DNA of 64,000 bases from Myxococcota bacterium (GCA_039028615.1 JBCCHT010000007.1:64001-128000); one strand, 5' to 3'; positions 39,042 to 53,420 are shown, counted from the first letter of the stretch. Numbers and translations: made by a program. The notes: generated by a model not told the origin, from the sequence alone.

Positions 39042-39446
39042 GTGACCGACACGGGCCTAGAGATCGAGAAGCTCTGGAGTGCGCTCAAAGGCCTCGAAAT
39101 CGGCCTGCTCCCCGAGGAAACGACGGTGCCCACCGTTCGCATCCAGGTCGAGGGCGGGGGCGTGCTCGAAGTGTTCCGCGCCCAGGTCGTGGAGGCCGCG
39201 ATGGTCGCGTGGCGGGTGCGTGGTTTCACCGACGATGGCTCGGTTCGCCTCGCCGTGATCCTGGGGACCCAGGATGGTCGCGCGATGGTGACCGAGCGCG
39301 TCATTCCCGAGCAGGCCAGCACCGTGGTCGCCGGGCTCGTGACGAACTTCGAGACGAGCACGCGGAGCATCAGCGACCTGTCCGAGGCCATCGCCGTCGC
39401 GATTCGCGAGCGCATGGGCGACCCGATTCCGCCCGGCAAGAACTGA
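39042..39446 (+). CDS. Hypothetical protein
   Basis: 134-aa ORF with host-like codon usage filling the gap; no recognised motif. Confidence 0.6.
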   Translation: MTDTGLEIEKLWSALKGLEIGLLPEETTVPTVRIQVEGGGVLEVFRAQVVEAAMVAWRVRGFTDDGSVRLAVILGTQDGRAMVTERVIPEQASTVVAGLVTNFETSTRSISDLSEAIAVAIRERMGDPIPPGKN

Positions 39447-39448
39447 GG

Positions 39449-42076
39449 TCACCGTCGCGGCAGCGCGTCCGCGACTCCGTCGCCGTCTTCGTCGACCGGG
39501 GCCGCGCCGTCGAACCAATCGATCTCGGCGACGACCTCCGTCTCGATCCCCGTGGGGTGCACGCTCCGCGTGGGCACGTCGAGCTTCATGACCTCGTGGG
39601 GTCCTTCGCCGCCCGTGGTGAAGAACAAGGTGCGAGCGTCGGCGCCGTAACTCATGGCCGTCAGTCCGGGTGGAGTCACCAGTCGGCCCGTGGTCGCGAG
39701 CACCTCGGCCGACAAGGCCTCGTCGTAGATGCGGACCTCGTCGATCGAGCCGGGGAAGCTCTGTCGACAAACGTCGGTGTCGAGGCCCGAGCGACGACAG
39801 GTGGCGCGACGACCGTTGCCGATGACCAGCGGCACGTCGTTGCCCGGCATCGCGCCCTTCACCGGAGTGCTGGCGGTGAGCGCCCCGTCGACATACATCC
39901 GCAGCATCGCGCCGTCGTAGGTGACCGCCAGCTCGTACCAACGGTCGCGCTCCAGGCCCCGCGGGTGCCGAATCGTCTGGGGACCCGTGCTCGTCGTCAT
40001 GGAGAACGCGGGGCGCATCTCGGCCACGCGAAGCTGGAACGCACCATCGGTCTCGGCTCGGTCCGTCTTCGACATCAGCATCGTGTGCGCGTAGCTCCGC
40101 GAACTCATGTCGTCGACCTCGATGCGGAACCGGGCGGTCATCGTGAACGCGGCGAGCCCCGTCAGCCAAGCCGGCGACCCACACTCGAGCCGTCCGTCGT
40201 CGAGGAAATTGGCGACACGCCCCACCACGCCCTCGTCGGCCTGCTCCTCGTCCTCGATCGTCACCGGTCCGATCACGGTGCACGACGGGGGTGAATCGCC
40301 GAGCCGGGGCGCCTGCCCGTCGAACGACTCGAAGAAGCGCGGGCGATGGAGGGTGCTCTCGACCACGATCGAGCTTCGCACCATGACCGCCAGGTGCTCG
40401 CCCTGCGGGTCCCAGGCCGAGCGCCCGCAGCACTCGGGCGCAAACACGGGCATGGGCTCGAAGCGCCCCGCGTCCACATTGACGAGACCCGGCTGCGGCG
40501 GGATGCGCCCCTCGTTGACCCCCGGACCGTTGCAGCGAGACCCGAGCGCCACCACCGAGCCGTCGCGGGGGTTGATGGAGGGGAACATCAGCACCACCTC
40601 CGGCTGGATGAAGTGGCGTCGCTGCGAAAAGGGCCGCTCGGGCTCGACGCGAAAGAGCGTCTCGGCACAGCCGGGCCCGCGGGAAAAGAGCAGACCCTTG
40701 CCATCCGGTTCCCAGCTCAGCCCGCGGTACTCGTTGTTGCTGAGCGTGTCGGCGATGGTCTCGAAGCCACCGCCGTCGAGGCCGAACGTGTGCAGCCGCG
40801 GGATGCCGTCGTAGTCGCCGTCCGGGGTGCGATCGGACATCACGGCGATCGTGTCCTTGCGGGGGGAGACCATCGCCCCGGAAAACTCGTTCGAGATGCC
40901 ATCGCTGGTGAGCCCTTCGGTCATGCGGACCCGGGCCGAGCCGTCGTCGCGGACCAGCCACACCTCGGCGCGACCGCTGGCGCGGGAGATCGTCGTCAAC
41001 CATCCCCCCTGCGGCTCCGGGGTGGGCTGCACTCGGGCCTCGGCGACGGCGGGAGGCTCGGTCGACAGAGGTTCGGCCGTCGGCAACGCGAGCCACACTC
41101 CGGTCGCCGCCAAGGCGCCCAGCGCCCCCGCGCCCAGCACGGGTCCGAAGCGACGTCCTCGCGTCGGGCCACCGTGCGCCCACCGACGCAACGCCGGCAT
41201 CAGCTCCTCGCGAAGCTCGGCGATGGTCGCATGGCGTTCCTCGGCCTGGCTCGACCACGCCCGCACCAAGGGCTCGCGAAGGGCCAGCGGGAGCAAATCC
41301 GCGGAGTCGTCGTCCAAGGTCCACGGAGGTCGTCCCGTCGCCGCCTCGATCAACGTCACCGCCACCGCGTACACCTCGGAGCGCACGTCGTAGTAGCCCG
41401 CGTGGTGCTCCGGGGCCATGTACGCGGCCGTGCCCGGAGCCGCGCCCGTTCGCGTCAGCTTCTGCTCCGTCTTCACCAGCCCGAAGTCGAGCAGCTTCAC
41501 GTAGGGCGGGGTCGCGGACCAGAACACGTTGGCGGGCTTGATGTCGCGATGCAGCACCGCGGGGTGCAGCGCCGACAGCCCGTCGAACAACCCCTCGGCC
41601 AGGCGTAGCAGCTCGTGGGCGCGAAGCGGCCCGTCACGCAGCCGCTGCGCCAGGTCCATGCCCTCGAGGTGCTCCATCACCATATACGGACGCTCGTTCC
41701 AACGGCCCACGTCGAGCAGTCGCACGATGTTGGGGTGTCGAAGTCCGGCCAGCGCATTGGCCCCATTGACGAAGCGCTGCTCGGCCTCGTCCGCCGAGAG
41801 CAGGAGGATCTTGATCGCCACCTTCAGCGCTGGAACGGCAATATTGTGCGCGGCCCAGACCACCCCGAAGCCACCCGCCCCGAGGCGATGATCGAGTTCG
41901 AAGTTGCCGAGTCGCAGCCCCGGGCAGAGTTCGTCGGGCTCGGCCAGCCCCTCGTGTGCCGACAACGTCGAGCGCGGCGGCGGGATGTCGCCCTCCGCCA
42001 CGTGGGCGAGCAACTTGGCCAGGCCGTTGCGTTCGGCCTCGTCGAGCTCCTGCTCGGATGGCGAGTCGTCGGGCAT
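39449..42076 (-). CDS. Ser/Thr kinase-TM-TolB-like propeller with inserted LamG/ConA domain
   Basis: GAGGFGVV, VAIK, HRDIKPAN, DFG, GTAAYMAPE; LamG motifs WYELAVTYDG..LRMYVDG and F.GSIDEVRIYD.ALS. Confidence 0.88.
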   Translation of the reverse strand: MPDDSPSEQELDEAERNGLAKLLAHVAEGDIPPPRSTLSAHEGLAEPDELCPGLRLGNFELDHRLGAGGFGVVWAAHNIAVPALKVAIKILLLSADEAEQRFVNGANALAGLRHPNIVRLLDVGRWNERPYMVMEHLEGMDLAQRLRDGPLRAHELLRLAEGLFDGLSALHPAVLHRDIKPANVFWSATPPYVKLLDFGLVKTEQKLTRTGAAPGTAAYMAPEHHAGYYDVRSEVYAVAVTLIEAATGRPPWTLDDDSADLLPLALREPLVRAWSSQAEERHATIAELREELMPALRRWAHGGPTRGRRFGPVLGAGALGALAATGVWLALPTAEPLSTEPPAVAEARVQPTPEPQGGWLTTISRASGRAEVWLVRDDGSARVRMTEGLTSDGISNEFSGAMVSPRKDTIAVMSDRTPDGDYDGIPRLHTFGLDGGGFETIADTLSNNEYRGLSWEPDGKGLLFSRGPGCAETLFRVEPERPFSQRRHFIQPEVVLMFPSINPRDGSVVALGSRCNGPGVNEGRIPPQPGLVNVDAGRFEPMPVFAPECCGRSAWDPQGEHLAVMVRSSIVVESTLHRPRFFESFDGQAPRLGDSPPSCTVIGPVTIEDEEQADEGVVGRVANFLDDGRLECGSPAWLTGLAAFTMTARFRIEVDDMSSRSYAHTMLMSKTDRAETDGAFQLRVAEMRPAFSMTTSTGPQTIRHPRGLERDRWYELAVTYDGAMLRMYVDGALTASTPVKGAMPGNDVPLVIGNGRRATCRRSGLDTDVCRQSFPGSIDEVRIYDEALSAEVLATTGRLVTPPGLTAMSYGADARTLFFTTGGEGPHEVMKLDVPTRSVHPTGIETEVVAEIDWFDGAAPVDEDGDGVADALPRR

Positions 42077-42123
42077 CGTCCTGGGAAGTCGAGTGCCATC
42101 AGGATACTCTGACATCGACCCCG

Positions 42124-42786
42124 GTGACCGAGACCTCCACCATAGAAGAGGAGCGAGAGCAGCTCGCACGGTGGCGAGGAGGCGATCGTGAGGTCGGTCA
42201 GGCACTGGTCTCCAAGCACTATCTGCGGGTATTTCGGCACTGCCGCGGCCGCCTGATGGATCGAAACGCGGCCGAGGACGCCGTTCAGGTCACGTTCATG
42301 CGCATGCAGCAGCAGAAGATCGGCCTGCGCGGCCGCCTGCTGCCCACCCTGCTCAAGGTGGCCGAGTACGTCTGCCGAGAAGCCAAGCGCGACATGAACA
42401 AACACGGCCACGCCGGTCGGGTCTCGCGACTGAAGACCGACCGCGCTGTGGAGTCCATGATCGACGTCGCCCGCGAGGAGGACCTCGTGTGGCGGATCAT
42501 CGAGCGCCACCTGACCGAGCAGGAGCGCCACATCCTCGAGCTGAAGTACCTACGCGGGCTCGAGGGCGCCCAGATCGGCCTGCTCATCGGCGAGGACGAG
42601 GAGGTCAAGGTTCGACACCGCGTCCGCAAGATCAAGCTGAAGATGCAGGCCGAGCTGGAGAAGCTCACCACGGACACCGAGTTCGTGCGCTCGGCTCTGC
42701 ATACGCTGGACGAATGGACCCGCACGGTACTCGAGCGACGAGATCGCCAGGGAGCGCCCGTCACCGAGCTGGACGACTGGGCGTGA
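42124..42786 (+). CDS. ECF sigma factor (kinase-associated type)
   Basis: LARWRGGDREVGQALV..H, AEDAVQ.TF, L...ER.ILEL.Y..GL....I; C-terminal TLDEW extension. Confidence 0.8.
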   Translation: MTETSTIEEEREQLARWRGGDREVGQALVSKHYLRVFRHCRGRLMDRNAAEDAVQVTFMRMQQQKIGLRGRLLPTLLKVAEYVCREAKRDMNKHGHAGRVSRLKTDRAVESMIDVAREEDLVWRIIERHLTEQERHILELKYLRGLEGAQIGLLIGEDEEVKVRHRVRKIKLKMQAELEKLTTDTEFVRSALHTLDEWTRTVLERRDRQGAPVTELDDWA

Positions 42787-42796
42787 GCGTCGATGT

Positions 42797-44128
42797 CTAC
42801 AGGTCGACGGGGGCGTAGGTGATGTCGATCAACGAGGAGAGCGTCGACCACTCGCGGACGAGCTTGTCGCGCGCTTCTTTGCCCACCAGCACCTGGGTCT
42901 TGCCGCTCTCGTCGATGTCGAGAAACAGGTTGGTGACCCGCTCGTAGTTCGCCAACGCGAACTGAGAGTGCGTGGTCATGATGATCTGACAGCCGCCGAT
43001 CTTGCCCTTCTTCCTGCGCTCGATTCGCTCCTTGGTCAGGTCCACCAGGTACTCGTAGAAGTGATACTGGTTGAGCGGTGACAGGTGCAGCTCGGGCTCG
43101 TCGAGCAAGAACACGCAGCCGGAGGCTTCGAGGCACTCGGTGAGGATCAACAGGCTCAGGATCTCGTTTTCACCCGAGCTGAGAAAATCGACGGCCCGGG
43201 GCTTGTCCGTGGGACCCATCGTCACCGTCGCCGTGATCTCGTCGCCGTACGCCTCGTCCGGCCACGGCTCGCCAACAGGCCACGGCTCTCGCGGCGCGTC
43301 GGGGTCGGCGCCTTCGGGGCGAGGCTTGAAGTACTGGAACGTGACGTCGTGGAGGTCTCGGGCGACGAGCTTGGTCAGATCATCGTCGTCGTCGAGCTTG
43401 GGGTCTTGGATCTTGCGCCACGCTCGACGCAGCCGCTCGGCCCCCAAAAGTCGCGCCGACGGGCCGCGTGGGTCCTCGATGGCATGGAACCGTCGCACCA
43501 CCGTCGCGGCGAGCGTCTCTTTGAGGTGCTTGGGGCTCTCCCGCAGGTCCATGCCCACGCCGTAGTCGTACATGTCCGTATTGGCGTAGGACATGAAGGA
43601 GTGCGGAGGCACGAAGCCCTCCCGCTTCTTCCGCAGGTCCTTGATCCGCTTGGGAGGCCGAAGGCGCCCCTTCTTGCCGTTGTCCCGGCTGAACACCGAG
43701 TGCTCTTGCTTCTCGCCCGCGTCGACCTTCTTCGGCCGGCTATAGCGGATCTCGTCTTGGAGCTTCTCGTAGTCCTCCTTGCGCAGCGACACGTCCGAGG
43801 TCTCGTCTGCGGTGGCCCACCAGTGCTCGAACTTCCCCTCCGCCAACGCCACGGTCAGGTGATCCGGGTCGCTGCTGTGAAAGGCGACGTGGTGCTCGTG
43901 TGGACCGAGCCGGTAGCACAGCCGTACGGTCGCCAGGGGCTGACCCACCTCGTCTCGCCAGGGGATCTCCGGGCTGTGCCCCAGCAGGGCGAGGGCCTCG
44001 AGCAGCGTCGTCTTGCCCGCACCGTTACGACCGCTGACGACCACGAAGTTCTTCTCGAGGACGGTGGGCTCATCCTGGTCGAGGCCCTTGAGTCCTTCGA
44101 TCTGAAACGAACGAATCACGAGGCTCAT
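42797..44128 (-). CDS. Stand-alone ABC-type ATPase (AAA_21; PtuA/AriA/OLD-ATPase-like)
   Basis: N-terminal I.SFQIEGLKGL, Walker A GRNGAGKTT, signature LSSGE, Walker B/D-loop LLDEPELHLSP, H-loop TTHS; GGAGG RBS and ATGA overlap with the SIR2 stop. Confidence 0.88.
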   Translation of the reverse strand: MSLVIRSFQIEGLKGLDQDEPTVLEKNFVVVSGRNGAGKTTLLEALALLGHSPEIPWRDEVGQPLATVRLCYRLGPHEHHVAFHSSDPDHLTVALAEGKFEHWWATADETSDVSLRKEDYEKLQDEIRYSRPKKVDAGEKQEHSVFSRDNGKKGRLRPPKRIKDLRKKREGFVPPHSFMSYANTDMYDYGVGMDLRESPKHLKETLAATVVRRFHAIEDPRGPSARLLGAERLRRAWRKIQDPKLDDDDDLTKLVARDLHDVTFQYFKPRPEGADPDAPREPWPVGEPWPDEAYGDEITATVTMGPTDKPRAVDFLSSGENEILSLLILTECLEASGCVFLLDEPELHLSPLNQYHFYEYLVDLTKERIERRKKGKIGGCQIIMTTHSQFALANYERVTNLFLDIDESGKTQVLVGKEARDKLVREWSTLSSLIDITYAPVDL

Positions 44129-45531
44129 GCGACCTCCTGCAGGCACTCGCTCGCTCGGCGGGCGTACTCGTCGACGAATTCCATGAGCGGTCGGCCAACG
44201 GCTGGGCTCGGCACTTCCGCCTCCACCCAGCGGTGGTTCGAGCACCCTCGGGCCTTCAGCAACCGGTGAATGGCGGCGGTGACGTGGCCGTGCTGATCGA
44301 GATCGATGAACACTCGGCCCTGCTGGCAGATCCGCTCGATGTCGGCGCGCGAGGGGTACTCGGCCAAGTGGGGTAGATCCGAGTGCCGGGCATCGTGGTA
44401 GTAGATGCGAACCCGGGGCGGCCTCTCATCCCCCTCCGCCTGGTGCCACAGGATGGCGTTGCGAAGGGCGATCGCTGCGATGGTCTGGTCCTTGTCTTGA
44501 ACGCTGGCCAGGATGTACACGGGGGTGGCCGGGCGACTGTCGTCAACGCCGAAGCTCGTGCTCTGGGGCTCGGCGAGCGTACGCAGGACTCGCACGAAGC
44601 CGCTGTGATCCCAAGGGCGGTGCTGGTGGTAGAGCCACACCTGCGCCCCGCGTTCGTGCCACTGCTTCCACCGCGCTTCGTCGACCTCGAGGTGGCCGAT
44701 GAGGATCGCCGACTGACGCCCCTTGTACATATCGAGCGCCGCGTCGAGATGCGGATCCAGACCGCTCGACCCCAACACCAGGAGGTGGTGCTTCTTGCAG
44801 TCCCGCAAGAAACGGTCAATCAGCCGCTGTCGCTCTTCCGTTCCGTAGTCACAGACGGTGAGCGTCATCGTAGGCGGGTCACTCACCGTGCCGTGCAGCT
44901 TGACCACACAAAAGCCCTCGTACTTGTCGAGCTCTCGGTGATGCGTCGTGATGATGTGGGGAATCGTGCCGCGATTGCGAAGGGCGAGGGCGCCCTCGAG
45001 TGCCAGGTCGTAGTTGGTCGTATAGAACCGCTTCGTCGGGATCCGGGCCGCCAGGTGGTGCACGTACTGCGGCACCATGTGGTCGCTGGCGAGAAGCTCT
45101 GCCAAGTAGCTGCGAAAATCTCCGTCGTCGTCGGAACTCCTTTCTAGGCACGACCTCCGGATCTTCGTTGCGATGTCCTGAAGTTCCTCGAGGGTGAGCG
45201 ACTCTTTCGACAGCGCCTCCGAGACGCCCGCAGAAGAGAAGGCGTCGGAAAGCTCGGTCAGCAGTCCCTTCCAGGTGGGCATGGAGCTGCCGTCCGTGCG
45301 CTGGAGATAGGTGCTCAACCCCGCCCCGACATGGGTGATGAATCCCGTCCCTCCTCGAACGGAGGCTGGCGTCAGCCAGTCGAAACGAAGCTTGCCGATG
45401 TCGTGATTGCCGAGAAACGACGGCGGATCGGCCGACGCTTCGATGAGCTGCTGTTCCTCGAGCAACTGATTTTTGATGTGTGTGCGGTATTCCTTGATCT
45501 TGCTTCTGAGGGTTCGCTTGCTTTCGTTCAC
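44125..45531 (-). CDS. SIR2-like (SIR2_2) NAD-cleaving domain protein with extra C-terminal alpha/beta domain
   Basis: VGAGLS, P.W..L, YTTNYD..LE, VKLHG, LLVLGSS..DP; GGAGG RBS 4 nt before GTG. Confidence 0.88.
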   Translation of the reverse strand: MNESKRTLRSKIKEYRTHIKNQLLEEQQLIEASADPPSFLGNHDIGKLRFDWLTPASVRGGTGFITHVGAGLSTYLQRTDGSSMPTWKGLLTELSDAFSSAGVSEALSKESLTLEELQDIATKIRRSCLERSSDDDGDFRSYLAELLASDHMVPQYVHHLAARIPTKRFYTTNYDLALEGALALRNRGTIPHIITTHHRELDKYEGFCVVKLHGTVSDPPTMTLTVCDYGTEERQRLIDRFLRDCKKHHLLVLGSSGLDPHLDAALDMYKGRQSAILIGHLEVDEARWKQWHERGAQVWLYHQHRPWDHSGFVRVLRTLAEPQSTSFGVDDSRPATPVYILASVQDKDQTIAAIALRNAILWHQAEGDERPPRVRIYYHDARHSDLPHLAEYPSRADIERICQQGRVFIDLDQHGHVTAAIHRLLKARGCSNHRWVEAEVPSPAVGRPLMEFVDEYARRASECLQEVA

Positions 45532-45714
45532 GGGGCCTCCTGTCCGAGGCCGCCGGGCGCCGTCCGCCCTGGCCTCAGCGTGTACTGATGGCCAGAGCCC
45601 GCGCGTAACCCGCAAAGTGCATTTTTCTCCGAACTTTTCTGCTGCCCCGCCCTACTCCCTCGAATTCACCCGAATACGACCAACCAGCCGCCGCGTGTAC
45701 CATGGCGCCCGACC

Positions 45715-46212
45715 ATGCCGCTGCGCTCTTCCCTGCCTTCGCTGCTCGCCCTGCTGCTGGCCGCTGCATGCACCGGACCGGCCGGCCCCGGACCGCAGGA
45801 GGCCAACTTCCCCAAGGGCAGCCGCACGAGCGCCAACGCGGCGCTGCAGCTGGAGCTCACCGCGGCGCGCTACGAGATGCGCTTGGTCTCGATCGAGGTC
45901 GCGCTGCACAACCCGGGACAGACCGCCCTCACGCTCGAGCGGCAGGGCATCCTGCTCGAGTACAACCAGCTCGAGTTTCCGGTGACGGACTTGGGCACCG
46001 AGGTGCTCGCGAACGAGATCGTGGTCGACCCGGGCGCGACGATACAGCTCCAGCTGGGCTTCGTGACGGAGCAGGCTCTGCTCGAAGCGGCGAAGCTGCA
46101 CGTGATGTCCATCCGCCGCGGCCCGGAGAGCTGGGCCGAGCCGCTGACTATCGCGGTGCCGCCTCCCGCCGCGTTCGTCGACGCAGCGACCGAGCCCGAT
46201 CCCGAAGCATAG
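45715..46212 (+). CDS. Hypothetical lipoprotein (beta-sandwich-like)
   Basis: Lipobox LAAAC. Confidence 0.7.
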   Translation: MPLRSSLPSLLALLLAAACTGPAGPGPQEANFPKGSRTSANAALQLELTAARYEMRLVSIEVALHNPGQTALTLERQGILLEYNQLEFPVTDLGTEVLANEIVVDPGATIQLQLGFVTEQALLEAAKLHVMSIRRGPESWAEPLTIAVPPPAAFVDAATEPDPEA

Positions 46213-49827: not shown

Positions 49828-50319
49828 GTGACCCCCCGCCCCTTGCCCCCCGCAGGGCGGTCGGTGTTCGCATTCGTCGTCGGTCTGCTGGTCGCGAGCG
49901 CGCCCGGCTGCCGCGATGACGAAGCCGCGTCCCCCGATCTCCCCCTCGACGCCCCCTGGACCCCCGGCAACGGCGAGTTCGACGACTCCTGCGAGCAGGG
50001 CTGCGAGGAGTTCCTGGAGCTGACCACGCCCCACTCGGGAGAGCTCGATCTGCGCCTCGCCACCGAGCTCGACGATCCCTTGGCGCAGTGGGGCGAGTGC
50101 ATCGGGACCTTCTTCGCGTGCTGGGGCGACGAGCAACGCCCGGTCCCGGAGTGCGTGCAGGCAGCGACCTGCCCCGCCGCGTGCAAGGCCGAGTTCACCC
50201 GCCAAGTGGTCGACGCCGAGGACGAAGAGCAAGAGATCCACGCATTCAACCGCGTGTTCGTGGATGACGACGCGCCCTGCCGGGCCCCCGACGACGACGC
50301 CCCGGAGGCCTCGCCATGA
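49828..50319 (+). CDS. Cys-rich acidic lipoprotein
   Basis: Lipobox-like APGC; 8 further Cys; ATGA overlap with the next gene. Confidence 0.7.
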   Translation: MTPRPLPPAGRSVFAFVVGLLVASAPGCRDDEAASPDLPLDAPWTPGNGEFDDSCEQGCEEFLELTTPHSGELDLRLATELDDPLAQWGECIGTFFACWGDEQRPVPECVQAATCPAACKAEFTRQVVDAEDEEQEIHAFNRVFVDDDAPCRAPDDDAPEASP

Positions 50320-53300
50320 AACGCATCGCGCATGCCACCGCCGTCCTGGCCGTGCTGTCGACCCAGGTCGGCTGGGACACCCAGACGGTCGGTCCGGCCA
50401 ACAACCAGTGGGAATCGCTGTACATCTTTCCGCCCGAGACCAGCTCGCCCGGCGACCGCTTCTATCTCGGCATCCCCCAAGAACCGTCGCTGGTCACGGG
50501 CAACGAGCACACCGAGCTGAGCCACATCGCGATCCAGCAGCTGGGGTGGACGCAGCTGTACGGGGAGCTGCCCGCGGTGATCGACCTCAACGAGTCGGTC
50601 TATCGCCGCCACCAGCTGCAGGTCCCGGTGAGCCCCGGCTTCAGCGACGCCTACGGAGACGTCACCGACACCGGGCTCACCGAGCGCGCCATTCCCCATC
50701 CGGCTCGGTTCTCCGGGACCGCCGACTACAGCTACACCGTTGCCGACTGGCTCAACAAAAATCAGTTCTGCCCCGCGCTGCCCGAGGGCGTGCCCCAACG
50801 CGACGAGTGCCACACCTTCGAATACTGGCTGGGCGCGGTGTTCAACTCGAGCCACTTCGGCGACCAGGCCACCGCGGTCTACAAGCACTATCACCGCATC
50901 GCGATGGCGTTGGCTCGCAACGCCCAGTTCATGGGCGCGCAGCTCGAGGCCGCGATCGACCAGGGCCGCGCCGACCAGACCGAGCTCGAGGCCTACGTCC
51001 GCGAGGCGGAGCTCGAGGCGTTGATCTACGAGGGCTACGCCCAGCACTACCTGCAAGACCGCTGGTCTTCGGGGCACATGTGGAACCGGTGGAACGCACC
51101 GAGCTACGAAGCCCAGGAGGCACCGATCCGCGAAGAGGCCGAGCTGTCGCCCCACCGGGTGACGGGGCTGGTCTCGGGGATGATCCACGGCGGCGAGGCG
51201 AAACTGAAGAACCTGGCACTCGCCGGCGTGGGGCTGCCCCGCGAGCTGGTGGCCGACCCGATGTGCTCGCCCGTCATCGGCAAGGACGCGCAGGGCAACG
51301 ACGCCGCGCTGGGGGTCGACCACGTCGACCGGGTGTGTGCGGACTCGGGGGCGAACCTCGCCAGCTGCACCGATCCGGGGGTCGGCGACTACCGCCTCCG
51401 CGACATGATGCGATCGCAGTTCGGGGCCAGCTACTACGGGCAGGACTACCCGCTGGACGTGGACGGCCAGCGCACCGAGATGCTGGCGTGCTCGACCGCG
51501 GGCTGGGCCGACGTCGCCAGCCAGTTCCACGACGACGGCTCCGGCCGCTACGGCACCTTCGACCTGACGCTTCCTTCCGGCACGGCCCGCTTCACCGACA
51601 GCAGCCTCGACGAGGTCCAGGTCGGCGGGGCGCGGGTGCGTTGCTGGGACCAGTGGGCCACCAACACCGCGATGAGCCAGGGCCGGGCGCTCCGGGTCGT
51701 GCTCGGTGCCGCCTACCTCGGCCGCGTGGTCGTCCGCTTCGGGCCTCGCTTCTCTCGACTGCTGAAGTTGGTGAAGGGCCAGGACCTCGTCCACCTGTAC
51801 GAGCAGATGATCCTGGCCCGCAACCGCGATCCAAACGGCACCACGCTGGCCCGCAACTGGCAGCCGGATCCCCCCGGTCCCTTCGTCAGCAACAACTACG
51901 GCCTGCTCTCGCTGCAAGGCAGCAAGCCCGGAGGCGAGTACGTCGACGCCATCCCGGCCGCCTACCACGAGCCGGTCGACGGCGGGACCAGTACGCCCTT
52001 CGACGAGCTTCCCGACCAGAGCGACGCCTACGGCACCGCGTGGAGCCACACCGAAGAGCGCACGGAAGAAGCCGCCCGTCCCGGTCTGGACAAGCACACG
52101 ATCTACGGGTTCTTCAACAAGGCCCATAGCCACTACTGGTGCGCCGAGGCGGGGAACAAGCTGCCCTGGAACGACGAGGTCGACCTGTTCCTCACCGGCG
52201 ACGACGACGAGCGCACGCACCCGCGGCAAGGCATGCGCATGCCGGTTCCGCGCCCCGAGGAGGCCAAGGAGCAAGGCGAGACCCTGCGTCGACTCGATGC
52301 CTGCGTGCTCATGGCCGACCGCCTCTACCAGGGCACCCGAGCGTTCTATATGCCCGAAGGGGAGCGAGAGTACCTGGGCGAGTCGGCCGAGTCTCGCCGG
52401 GTGGAGCACGGAGGCGTGGGCCGCCCCGAGGTCGATGCGCCGTGCTCCGTGTTCGCCGACGTCGAGTTCCCCGGCTGGGAGGACAACCCCCGGGACCTGC
52501 ACCCCGGCTATGTCGTCGCCACCGACCCCGAAGACGCGGACAGTGGCCCCTACCTCCAGCGAGAACGCTACGACCACGCCTACTACGAGAGCATCGCCAA
52601 CTGGTGCCGGGCCCTTCCCGTGGTCAACGTCGACACCAACGACATGGCGGTCGACGAGTCCGGCGTTTCGCTCAACGTGAGGCCGGGCATCACCGAGTCG
52701 GGCGAGGTGTCCTTCGCGGATTCCGTGCTCAACCCCCACGTCACCTTGCGCGGGTACAACTTCGGCGACATCGAGGGCCGCGTGCGTCTCGACAGCATCA
52801 ATGGCTGCGTCGACGTGGTCAACGTCTCGCCCTTGGCCGACATCGTGTCGTGGAGCGACCGCGAGATCACCATTTCGGTCGACAACACCCGCTTCATTCC
52901 CGACCTCTACGACATCACGATCATCCGGGACGACCGCAACGAGGACGGCGGACGCGTCCGCTCCGTGGGCCGAGCCCGCCTGGACATCTCGGTGGCGGTG
53001 TTCACCGACGTCGCCAGCCCCGGCGCTCCCCTGCCTCCAGCGAGCAGTAACCAGCCCTTCCGCGCGATCCATCCCTACTGCGACGGTGGCGTGCCCTTCC
53101 GTCACGAGATCTGGGACTGCACGGAGCTCGCCACGACTCAGCTGGTGGACTGCGGCGACGACCAGGTCGGCGCGGGCACCCGCCTGTGGAACGACGAGGG
53201 GCCCTTCGACCCGCAGCCCGGGCCCTGGGACGAGCACACGTGGACGGTCGACCAGGTCGGCACCTGCGAAGACATGTTCTTCCCCTCCGCGGCGTGCCCC

Positions 53301-53420
53301 GACCACGTGCCCGCCTACTACGGGCTCACCTATCGCTTCGACCGTCTGAGCAACGACCCCATCACGGCCACCGATCGCACCTGGAGGTTCGTCCTCGGGT
53401 GGGCTCGGCCCGGCCTCTAG
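50316..53420 (+). CDS. Large secreted protein: Zn-dependent phospholipase C/P1-like domain, IPT/TIG-like domain, Cys-rich C-terminus
   Basis: Signal peptide; GNEH, NSSHFG, EGYAQHYLQDRWSSGH; IPT-like VTLRGYNFG..G.V...IVSWSDREITISV. Confidence 0.7.
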   Translation: MKRIAHATAVLAVLSTQVGWDTQTVGPANNQWESLYIFPPETSSPGDRFYLGIPQEPSLVTGNEHTELSHIAIQQLGWTQLYGELPAVIDLNESVYRRHQLQVPVSPGFSDAYGDVTDTGLTERAIPHPARFSGTADYSYTVADWLNKNQFCPALPEGVPQRDECHTFEYWLGAVFNSSHFGDQATAVYKHYHRIAMALARNAQFMGAQLEAAIDQGRADQTELEAYVREAELEALIYEGYAQHYLQDRWSSGHMWNRWNAPSYEAQEAPIREEAELSPHRVTGLVSGMIHGGEAKLKNLALAGVGLPRELVADPMCSPVIGKDAQGNDAALGVDHVDRVCADSGANLASCTDPGVGDYRLRDMMRSQFGASYYGQDYPLDVDGQRTEMLACSTAGWADVASQFHDDGSGRYGTFDLTLPSGTARFTDSSLDEVQVGGARVRCWDQWATNTAMSQGRALRVVLGAAYLGRVVVRFGPRFSRLLKLVKGQDLVHLYEQMILARNRDPNGTTLARNWQPDPPGPFVSNNYGLLSLQGSKPGGEYVDAIPAAYHEPVDGGTSTPFDELPDQSDAYGTAWSHTEERTEEAARPGLDKHTIYGFFNKAHSHYWCAEAGNKLPWNDEVDLFLTGDDDERTHPRQGMRMPVPRPEEAKEQGETLRRLDACVLMADRLYQGTRAFYMPEGEREYLGESAESRRVEHGGVGRPEVDAPCSVFADVEFPGWEDNPRDLHPGYVVATDPEDADSGPYLQRERYDHAYYESIANWCRALPVVNVDTNDMAVDESGVSLNVRPGITESGEVSFADSVLNPHVTLRGYNFGDIEGRVRLDSINGCVDVVNVSPLADIVSWSDREITISVDNTRFIPDLYDITIIRDDRNEDGGRVRSVGRARLDISVAVFTDVASPGAPLPPASSNQPFRAIHPYCDGGVPFRHEIWDCTELATTQLVDCGDDQVGAGTRLWNDEGPFDPQPGPWDEHTWTVDQVGTCEDMFFPSAACPDHVPAYYGLTYRFDRLSNDPITATDRTWRFVLGWARPGL

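Follow-up and report, generated by a model that had tools for sequence, protein, structure and literature searches.

In a 64,000-nucleotide (nt) stretch of DNA from a Myxococcota bacterium (GCA_039028615.1 JBCCHT010000007.1:64001-128000; hereafter the window), positions 42797 to 45531 hold a two-gene operon that joins a predicted SIR2-type NADase to a compact ATP-binding cassette (ABC) ATPase. The locus is a real, intact and unusual operon, and the SIR2-ATPase pair fails the defining tests of Lamassu, PARIS, Septu and Thoeris; we regard it as a variant of ABC-ATPase-gated defence and not as a new category. It is an evenly balanced judgment whether the pair forms an abortive anti-phage module, with an ATPase of the PARIS/Septu class gating an NAD-depleting SIR2 effector. 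We entertain this reading because translation of the two genes is coupled, the SIR2 protein has the appropriate fold and motifs, the ATPase is of the AriA/PtuA class, immune effector domains and defence neighbours occur in the ATPase family, four cassettes of the family are lower in GC than their flanks and the chromosomal site is variable. What is conserved is the ATPase family, here termed NTD-RESPK, SIR2 being one among several partners, and this rare, partner-swapping family, with its MntP-like and channel partners, is a better lead than the SIR2 pairing.

Operon Architecture

Both open reading frames (ORFs) are intact and both lie on the minus strand. The SIR2 gene (44125..45531) starts at a GTG codon behind a Shine-Dalgarno AGGAGG (45536..45541, minus strand) and encodes 468 amino acids (aa), comprising an N-terminal helix (aa 5-32), a defence-type SIR2 domain (aa ~39-325) and a C-terminal alpha/beta domain. 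The ATPase gene (42797..44128) encodes a 443-aa protein of AAA_15/AAA_21 class with a Rad50/SMC-head-like fold lacking a coiled coil. The translational coupling proposed in a preliminary description of this DNA is borne out by an ATGA stop/start overlap at 44125-44128 and an AGGAGGT ribosome-binding site ahead of the ATPase start at 44132-44138, the whole element spanning 44125..44138 on the minus strand. On one side, the ATPase gene converges on an extracytoplasmic function (ECF)-like sigma gene, with 10 nt between the two stops; on the other, 183 nt separate the SIR2 start from a lipoprotein-like gene that diverges from it. The transcription unit therefore consists of two genes. Matches to sigma-70 promoters and terminators around the operon were no more than shuffled sequences give, and no telling repeats were found near it. 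The 64-kb stretch was found uninterrupted and identical on one contig of a sequencing run, possibly its source.

The DNA had also been described as less GC-biased than its flanks, which is true of total GC and not of third codon positions. Against 5,582 roughly called long ORFs, total GC places the SIR2 gene (0.631) at the 2nd percentile and the ATPase gene (0.642) at the 4th, but third-position GC is near normal, at 0.81 (20th percentile) and 0.88 (55th percentile), respectively. Low total GC alongside near-host third-position GC and codon use thus weakly suggests recent transfer of the pair.

The SIR2 Protein

The assignment of the first gene product to the defence-type SIR2 domains, with a predicted NADase activity, is supported by motifs and fold alike. 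All four motifs previously noted are present (GAGLS at 69, TTNYD at 171, KLHG at 211 and GSSGLDP at 254) in a domain encoded at 44557..45354 (minus strand), and a Pfam SIR2_2 match (E 3e-14), above the curated cut-off, is the sole Pfam domain of the protein. Residues N173 (of TTNYD) and H213 (of KLHG) correspond in position to what we take to be the catalytic Asn and His residues of ThsA/DSR2. In a model built from a 19-sequence alignment (mean pLDDT 67), aa 39-323 find their closest folds in SeThsA (7uxt) and KomC (8zsf), both at Z 21.6, with Avs5 (Z 18-19), SIR2-HerA (Z 12.8-16) and the classical Sir2/sirtuin deacetylases (Z <=13.8) more distant; Foldseek likewise ranks ThsA first. The protein has no close relative: of 326 matches in a search of 1.84 billion representatives, the best shares 37% identity and is confined to the SIR2 domain, and weak SIR2-only matches occur in 3 of 60 related genomes.

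The extra C-terminal domain, a four-stranded alpha/beta unit in a low-confidence part of the model (aa ~335-468; 44128..44529, minus strand), had not been noted before. It is possibly a degenerate TIR, and seemingly not a SLOG domain. Its beta/alpha pattern fits TIR, and SIR2 with a C-terminal TIR is a common architecture among the SIR2 matches, 9 of 18 hand-picked homologues giving a TIR or CAP12-TIR match. A profile made from the tails of TIR-bearing relatives scores the domain at 4.8 bits, above 300 of 300 shuffles, in a shifted register and with hhalign at 4%. Pfam gives no TIR, the best TIR fold match (IL-18Rbeta, Z 7.3) is equaled by unrelated folds, and by eye there is no Glu in the helix that holds the TIR catalytic Glu. 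Our own SLOG profile, which is small enough that a very remote SLOG is possible, scores no higher than on shuffles (hhalign probability 0.3%). Searches among the SIR2 matches, PDB sequences, Atlas features and the TIR of another family locus (L044) returned no significant match to the domain.

The SIR2 proteins of this group end in very different tails (TIR, CAP12-TIR, SLOG and others), and the best SIR2 match, P0035, carries a C-terminal domain of another kind. Two more SIR2 domains are encoded in the same genome (G000), at C14:10741-11145 and C23:111315-111590, in open frames of 1,514 and 1,249 aa.

The ATPase

The second protein was correctly described as an ABC ATPase with its motifs in place: Walker A (33), LSSGE (316), VFLLDE (339) and H387 are all located, with the qualification that a canonical Q-loop Gln is not discernible by eye. 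Pfam reports AAA_21 (2e-18) and AAA_15 (3e-15). As was also stated, the protein has neither a TOPRIM domain nor a long coiled coil (the longest model helix is 23 aa), nor does it contain a CxxC motif, and no permease is found among the six neighbours scanned with Pfam. The fold comparison (model pLDDT 77) gives Rad50/SMC heads at Z 18-20, PtuA at 15.8-17.6, OLD at 15.3, LmuB at 13.2-14.5 and AriA at 14.2, whereas transporter ATPase domains reach Z <=13.5 at most; Foldseek agrees. In PADLOC the best match is AriA (3e-19), and the matches as a group (AriA, PtuA, mad3, NsnB, GajA, AbiLi) span only shared ATPase motifs; NCBIfam PtuA scores 27 bits vs a cut-off of 500, and LmuB is absent from the 25 PADLOC matches listed. 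These results support placement of the ATPase in the PARIS/Septu AAA15/21 class, as had been proposed, and not among transporter subunits.

The family is marked by the loop NTD[M/L]..G...D.RES[P/V]K (aa 183-200; 43529..43582, minus strand), whose columns are invariant in alignments A1, A3 and A6. The loop is poorly modelled, and it appears to follow a predicted strand at the ABC-ATPase Q-loop position.

Comparison with Named Systems

PARIS, AbiL, Septu, Gabija and OLD are compact ABC-ATPase immune systems in which the released outputs are nucleases. Of these, PARIS (AriA + AriB; PMC11464382; PDB 8UX9) resembles the present locus in its compact AAA15/AAA21 ABC ATPase and two-gene operon, with AriA at fold Z 14.2. 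The partner here is SIR2, however, without the DUF4435/TOPRIM nuclease AriB, and the AriA match is to general ATPase motifs only. The two also differ in their evolution, for the cited passages describe AriA and AriB as co-evolving (PMC11464382), whereas the NTD-RESPK family swaps partners. Septu and retron I-A PtuAB (PDB 8EE4, 9E8Z) share the same ATPase class (Z 15.8-17.6), but the locus has no HNH nuclease (PtuB) or reverse transcriptase. In SIR2-HerA (Nezha), too, two genes encode a SIR2 NADase and an ATPase; the ATPase here, however, is of the ABC class by motifs and fold, not HerA/FtsK, and the SIR2 fold is more distant.

The likeness to Lamassu-Sir2 (ABC-3C) lies in the effector. Here, as there, an effector gene precedes an ABC-class ATPase, and SIR2 is an LmuA effector type, the locus giving a weak LmuA match in the SIR2 part only. 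The NTD-RESPK family moreover takes effectors (SIR2, TIR, FMO-like) from the pool that Lamassu uses: SIR2 and FMO are named as Lamassu effector types (PMC12663957), and TIR and SIR2 are also listed (PMC10586767). The ATPase is where the two part: LmuB has coiled coils and averages ~600 or ~800 aa, and LmuC is usual though lost in one clade (PMC12663957), while the 443-aa protein here has no coiled coil or zinc hook (CxxC). The SIR2 and ATPase genes overlap directly, so no LmuC lies between effector and ATPase, and the effector tail is alpha/beta vs the helical C-terminal domain of short LmuA.

Thoeris ThsA (SIR2-SLOG) and Kongming KomC provide the closest SIR2 folds, and one could imagine that the locus is a reduced Lamassu-Sir2, or else an orphan ThsA activated by a TIR signal from elsewhere. 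The SIR2 protein does give ThsA1 (3e-11) and LmuA (1.5e-5) as its best PADLOC matches, ThsA heads its Foldseek ranking, and the 4 of 10 plasmid SIR2 matches that were opened are all Thoeris-like, with SIR2 flanked by TIR genes. Nevertheless, both PADLOC matches are limited to the SIR2 domain, the C-terminal domain goes unscored by the SLOG profile, and the ATPase lacks the length and coiled coil of LmuB as well as an intervening LmuC-like gene. Thoeris I requires SLOG plus a TIR gene (10.64898/2025.12.03.692087); here no SLOG was detected, six TIR queries returned no match in the window at E 0.01, no ThsB is found among its 42 other ORFs, and the HAM1 partner of Kongming is missing as well. 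We consider either derivation very improbable.

The pair, then, is PARIS/Septu-like in its ATPase and Lamassu-like in its effector swapping, and a member of neither. The absence of a named counterpart, as had been suspected, holds for PADLOC, in which neither Lamassu nor any other model is matched in full, and for full-text literature searches (supplements being outside their scope), which yielded no description of a SIR2 plus compact ATPase pair or of the ATPase family. Novelty of both the pair and the family is accordingly provisional.

The ATPase Family and Its Partners

Relatives of the ATPase are 22-33% identical to it and share the invariant loop. The family comprises 31 distinct sequences found: the locus ATPase, 20 of 21 other first-search matches (P0027, which lacks the signature motif, was left out), four from a second search and six from genome searches. 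For 25 members in alignment A6, PADLOC matches fall on shared motifs only, the best at 6e-24 (best 25 of 129 families listed), and no PADLOC model appears, from these sequences, to fit the family specifically. In the tree, the ATPase of the SIR2 locus branches off basally, on a long branch whose placement is not resolved; we do not claim the closeness to an FMO fusion (P0028) that this branch might suggest.

The family is rare and patchily distributed. Some 1,800 overlapping genome searches found it in 8 genomes, the source included, with individual samples giving 5/101, 3/401, 2/401, 4/87, 1/121, 0/5, 0/201, 1/251, 1/171 and 1/61 by family profile; these samples overlap, and each genome had only a subset of its candidates scored (4-28 in the large samples). 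When alignment A1 was used to search for loci, Walker A patterns swamped the results: at least one of 13 loci listed from genome contigs is a true family locus (3 of 64 parts scanned), both loci among the metagenome-contig matches listed are Walker-A-only, and all five among the viral-contig matches listed are confined to the N-terminal Walker A region. A DNA pattern for the family signature was found in no viral contig, though it matches all 8 family loci examined here, and plasmid searches with P0002 or P0013 as query gave no matches.

Seven other family loci are readable, over 12-18 kb each. Their commonest partner is an MntP-like multi-pass membrane protein, whose gene is tightly coupled to that of the ATPase in L038 (9928-10695), L042 (6455-7345), L043 (6568-7383) and L044 (10077-10979). 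The four proteins are mutually homologous, with Pfam Mntp significant for L042 only, and such partners occur in both well-supported ATPase clades. An Ion_trans_2 pore protein adjoins the ATPase in L040 and L041, with a degenerate one in L043 (by eye), and DUF2061 is fused to the ATPase in L039. Other partners are of recognized immune types. In L044 an intact TIR-membrane protein gene lies 10 nt upstream of the ATPase (ThsB1 model, 8e-49), and in L038 a partial TIR precedes it; in P0028, known without genomic context, a Rossmann oxidoreductase (FMO-like) is fused to the ATPase and matches the Lamassu LmuA model at 1e-48 over aa 30-414. A SIR2-TIR profile run over the seven loci matched only the L044 TIR gene. 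Predicted C-terminal membrane helices are found in the ATPases of six of the seven loci, and in neither the SIR2-locus ATPase nor P0013. Defence neighbours occur at two of the seven (Upx ~2 kb upstream in L038, Cas8e/Cse1 directly after in L040), and cassette GC is below that of the flanks in L040, L041, L043 and L044.

Each of the seven other loci has either a membrane partner or a membrane part fused to the ATPase, and ZIP, Nramp or RND-type genes (the last by eye) abut L040, L041 and L044. One might suppose from this that the family has a non-immune role, powering or controlling how ions or metals are handled at the membrane through the MntP-like exporter or K+-channel-like pore, the SIR2-locus copy being a relic. 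We find this unlikely, as the fold is Rad50/PtuA-like and not that of a transporter ATPase, the distribution is sparse and patchy, and the partners include TIR, FMO-like and SIR2 proteins; ion channels are, besides, reported as candidate TIR-linked effectors (10.64898/2025.12.03.692087). A different proposal, which we put forward tentatively and hold to be possible though short of an even chance, is that NTD-RESPK ATPases constitute a modular platform for immunity that has not been described. A single compact ABC sensor would then drive outputs that can replace one another (an MntP-like metal exporter or K+-channel-like pore, with loss of ions or Mn; TIR; an FMO-like oxidoreductase; a SIR2 NADase), in a Lamassu-like effector swap upon a coiled-coil-less, PARIS-type scaffold, and the MntP-like protein would be a new kind of anti-phage effector. 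Literature searches found no MntP-like anti-phage effector, and manganese level is reported to modulate CBASS (PMC12802263). If the proposal is true, with one member gating an NADase and the family coupling to MntP-like and channel proteins, the sensor scaffold would be as modular as that of Lamassu, and the family would allow one to test directly whether loss of metal or ions can serve as a defence output.

The divergent MntP-like family retains both conserved Asp motifs and is mostly missed by Pfam and PADLOC. The transporter genes that abut the cassettes lie at L040 4014-4796, L041 3402-4694 and L044 4035-9859, and those for ZIP and Nramp are of intermediate GC, as if co-acquired. The ATPase of L038 (7379-9931; genome G447) has an extra N-terminal helical part, effector-associated-domain-like by eye, and several C-terminal membrane helices.

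Proposed Mechanism and Alternatives

How might such an ATPase govern a SIR2 effector? In PARIS, an AriA hexamer sequesters AriB and frees it once a phage protein is bound; the same source reports AAA15/21 ATPases beside varied effector domains as probable sensors (PMC11464382). By analogy, the ATPase oligomer would act as both sensor and inhibitor, binding the SIR2 effector, perhaps via its C-terminal alpha/beta domain, and keeping it inactive until infection. SIR2 would then be released and self-assemble, as in the helical structures that structure titles announce for ThsA, KomC and Avs5, and the assembled enzyme would cleave NAD+ until the pool was drained, much as SIR2 domains are described to deplete NAD+ in several abortive systems (10.1101/2022.05.11.491447; PMC13064643). 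The SIR2 partner was probably gained by an effector swap in which it replaced the family's more usual membrane partner, and the locus is likely a one-off version of a swappable anti-phage module as opposed to a widespread two-gene system.

Several observations weigh against an abortive module. The preliminary description had looked to conservation of the gene pair and to a defence-island setting, and so far neither has been found: a SIR2 domain is present at 0 of the 7 other family loci, no full-length homologue of either protein occurs in the 60 relatives, and the 42 other ORFs of the window include no dedicated defence gene. Approached from the SIR2 side, the result is the same, with none of the 35 viral loci that hold SIR2 relatives having a compact ABC ATPase directly beside SIR2. 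The predominance of MntP-like partners (4 of 7 loci), a gene for which was not found in the source genome, the near-host codon adaptation of both genes, and the report that AriA and AriB are rarely swapped (PMC11464382) all count on the same side, and a locus that is the one example of the SIR2 pairing has limited value by itself. Three ATPase-profile matches at the viral loci were discounted: one is a PARIS-like pair lying upstream, one a transporter, and one an ATPase of 872 aa encoded on the opposite strand.

The strongest competing account is chance stacking at a hotspot, whereby a stand-alone SIR2(-TIR-like) gene landed ahead of an ATPase that no longer had its membrane partner, the two now being co-translated but functionally separate, or the ATPase idle. 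In its favour are a pair seen once, a variable site, and the frequency of SIR2 plus C-terminal TIR among the homologues. It would not, on the other hand, readily account for an ATGA overlap that is exact and comes with a strong ribosome-binding site, for two genes that remain intact with all catalytic motifs despite host-like codon use, or for family ATPases elsewhere being tightly coupled or fused to changing partners, and we rate it as somewhat unlikely, if a serious competitor. An addiction pair is another way to explain a coupled two-gene operon at a variable site, the ATPase neutralising a constitutive SIR2 NADase with no phage trigger, and Pfam describes AAA_21 as a putative AbiEii type IV toxin-antitoxin family. 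The intact ATP-hydrolysis motifs, however, would suggest a switch over a passive antitoxin, and no mobile-element features were found near the operon; we think this improbable.

The Chromosomal Site

The abortive module, if such it is, occupies a site whose cargo differs among congeners. A conserved lipoprotein-like gene (45715..46212, plus strand), present in 4 of 5 congeners, marks its right border. In G004, a homologue of the ORF at 39042 lies ~780 nt from the lipoprotein gene, and therefore the block of kinase, sigma, ATPase and SIR2 genes is absent there. The fabV-to-lipoprotein interval in G005 spans ~31 kb, with type I restriction-modification (HsdR, M, S) and two NsnB/PDC-M55A-like ATPases, and G002 carries different cargo again. 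The site is thus variable and able to carry defence genes. Within the same variable block, a Ser/Thr kinase (minus strand) and the ECF-like sigma factor (plus strand) at 39449..42786 give no sign of belonging to the module, and matches for ORFs of the window are otherwise generic (kinases, a cyclase, OmpA-like domains, a sigma-54-type regulator and a transporter ATPase).

Additional Observations

The G005 cargo (L063 10642-20000 and L064 1-1470) runs from type I restriction-modification through the two tandem NsnB/PDC-M55A-like ABC ATPases, between which lies a gene for a 309-aa protein, to an FHA-like gene, an ECF gene and a kinase. On one viral contig (L086 2199-9052), three features labelled by eye stand in a row: a PARIS-like pair, a SIR2 protein that at 987 aa is of DSR-like size, and a TIR-like/DUF4062-like gene. 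Elsewhere in the window, a secreted-looking protein of 1034 aa (50316-53420), which has no PADLOC match, is coupled to a small Cys-rich lipoprotein-like gene (49828-50319).

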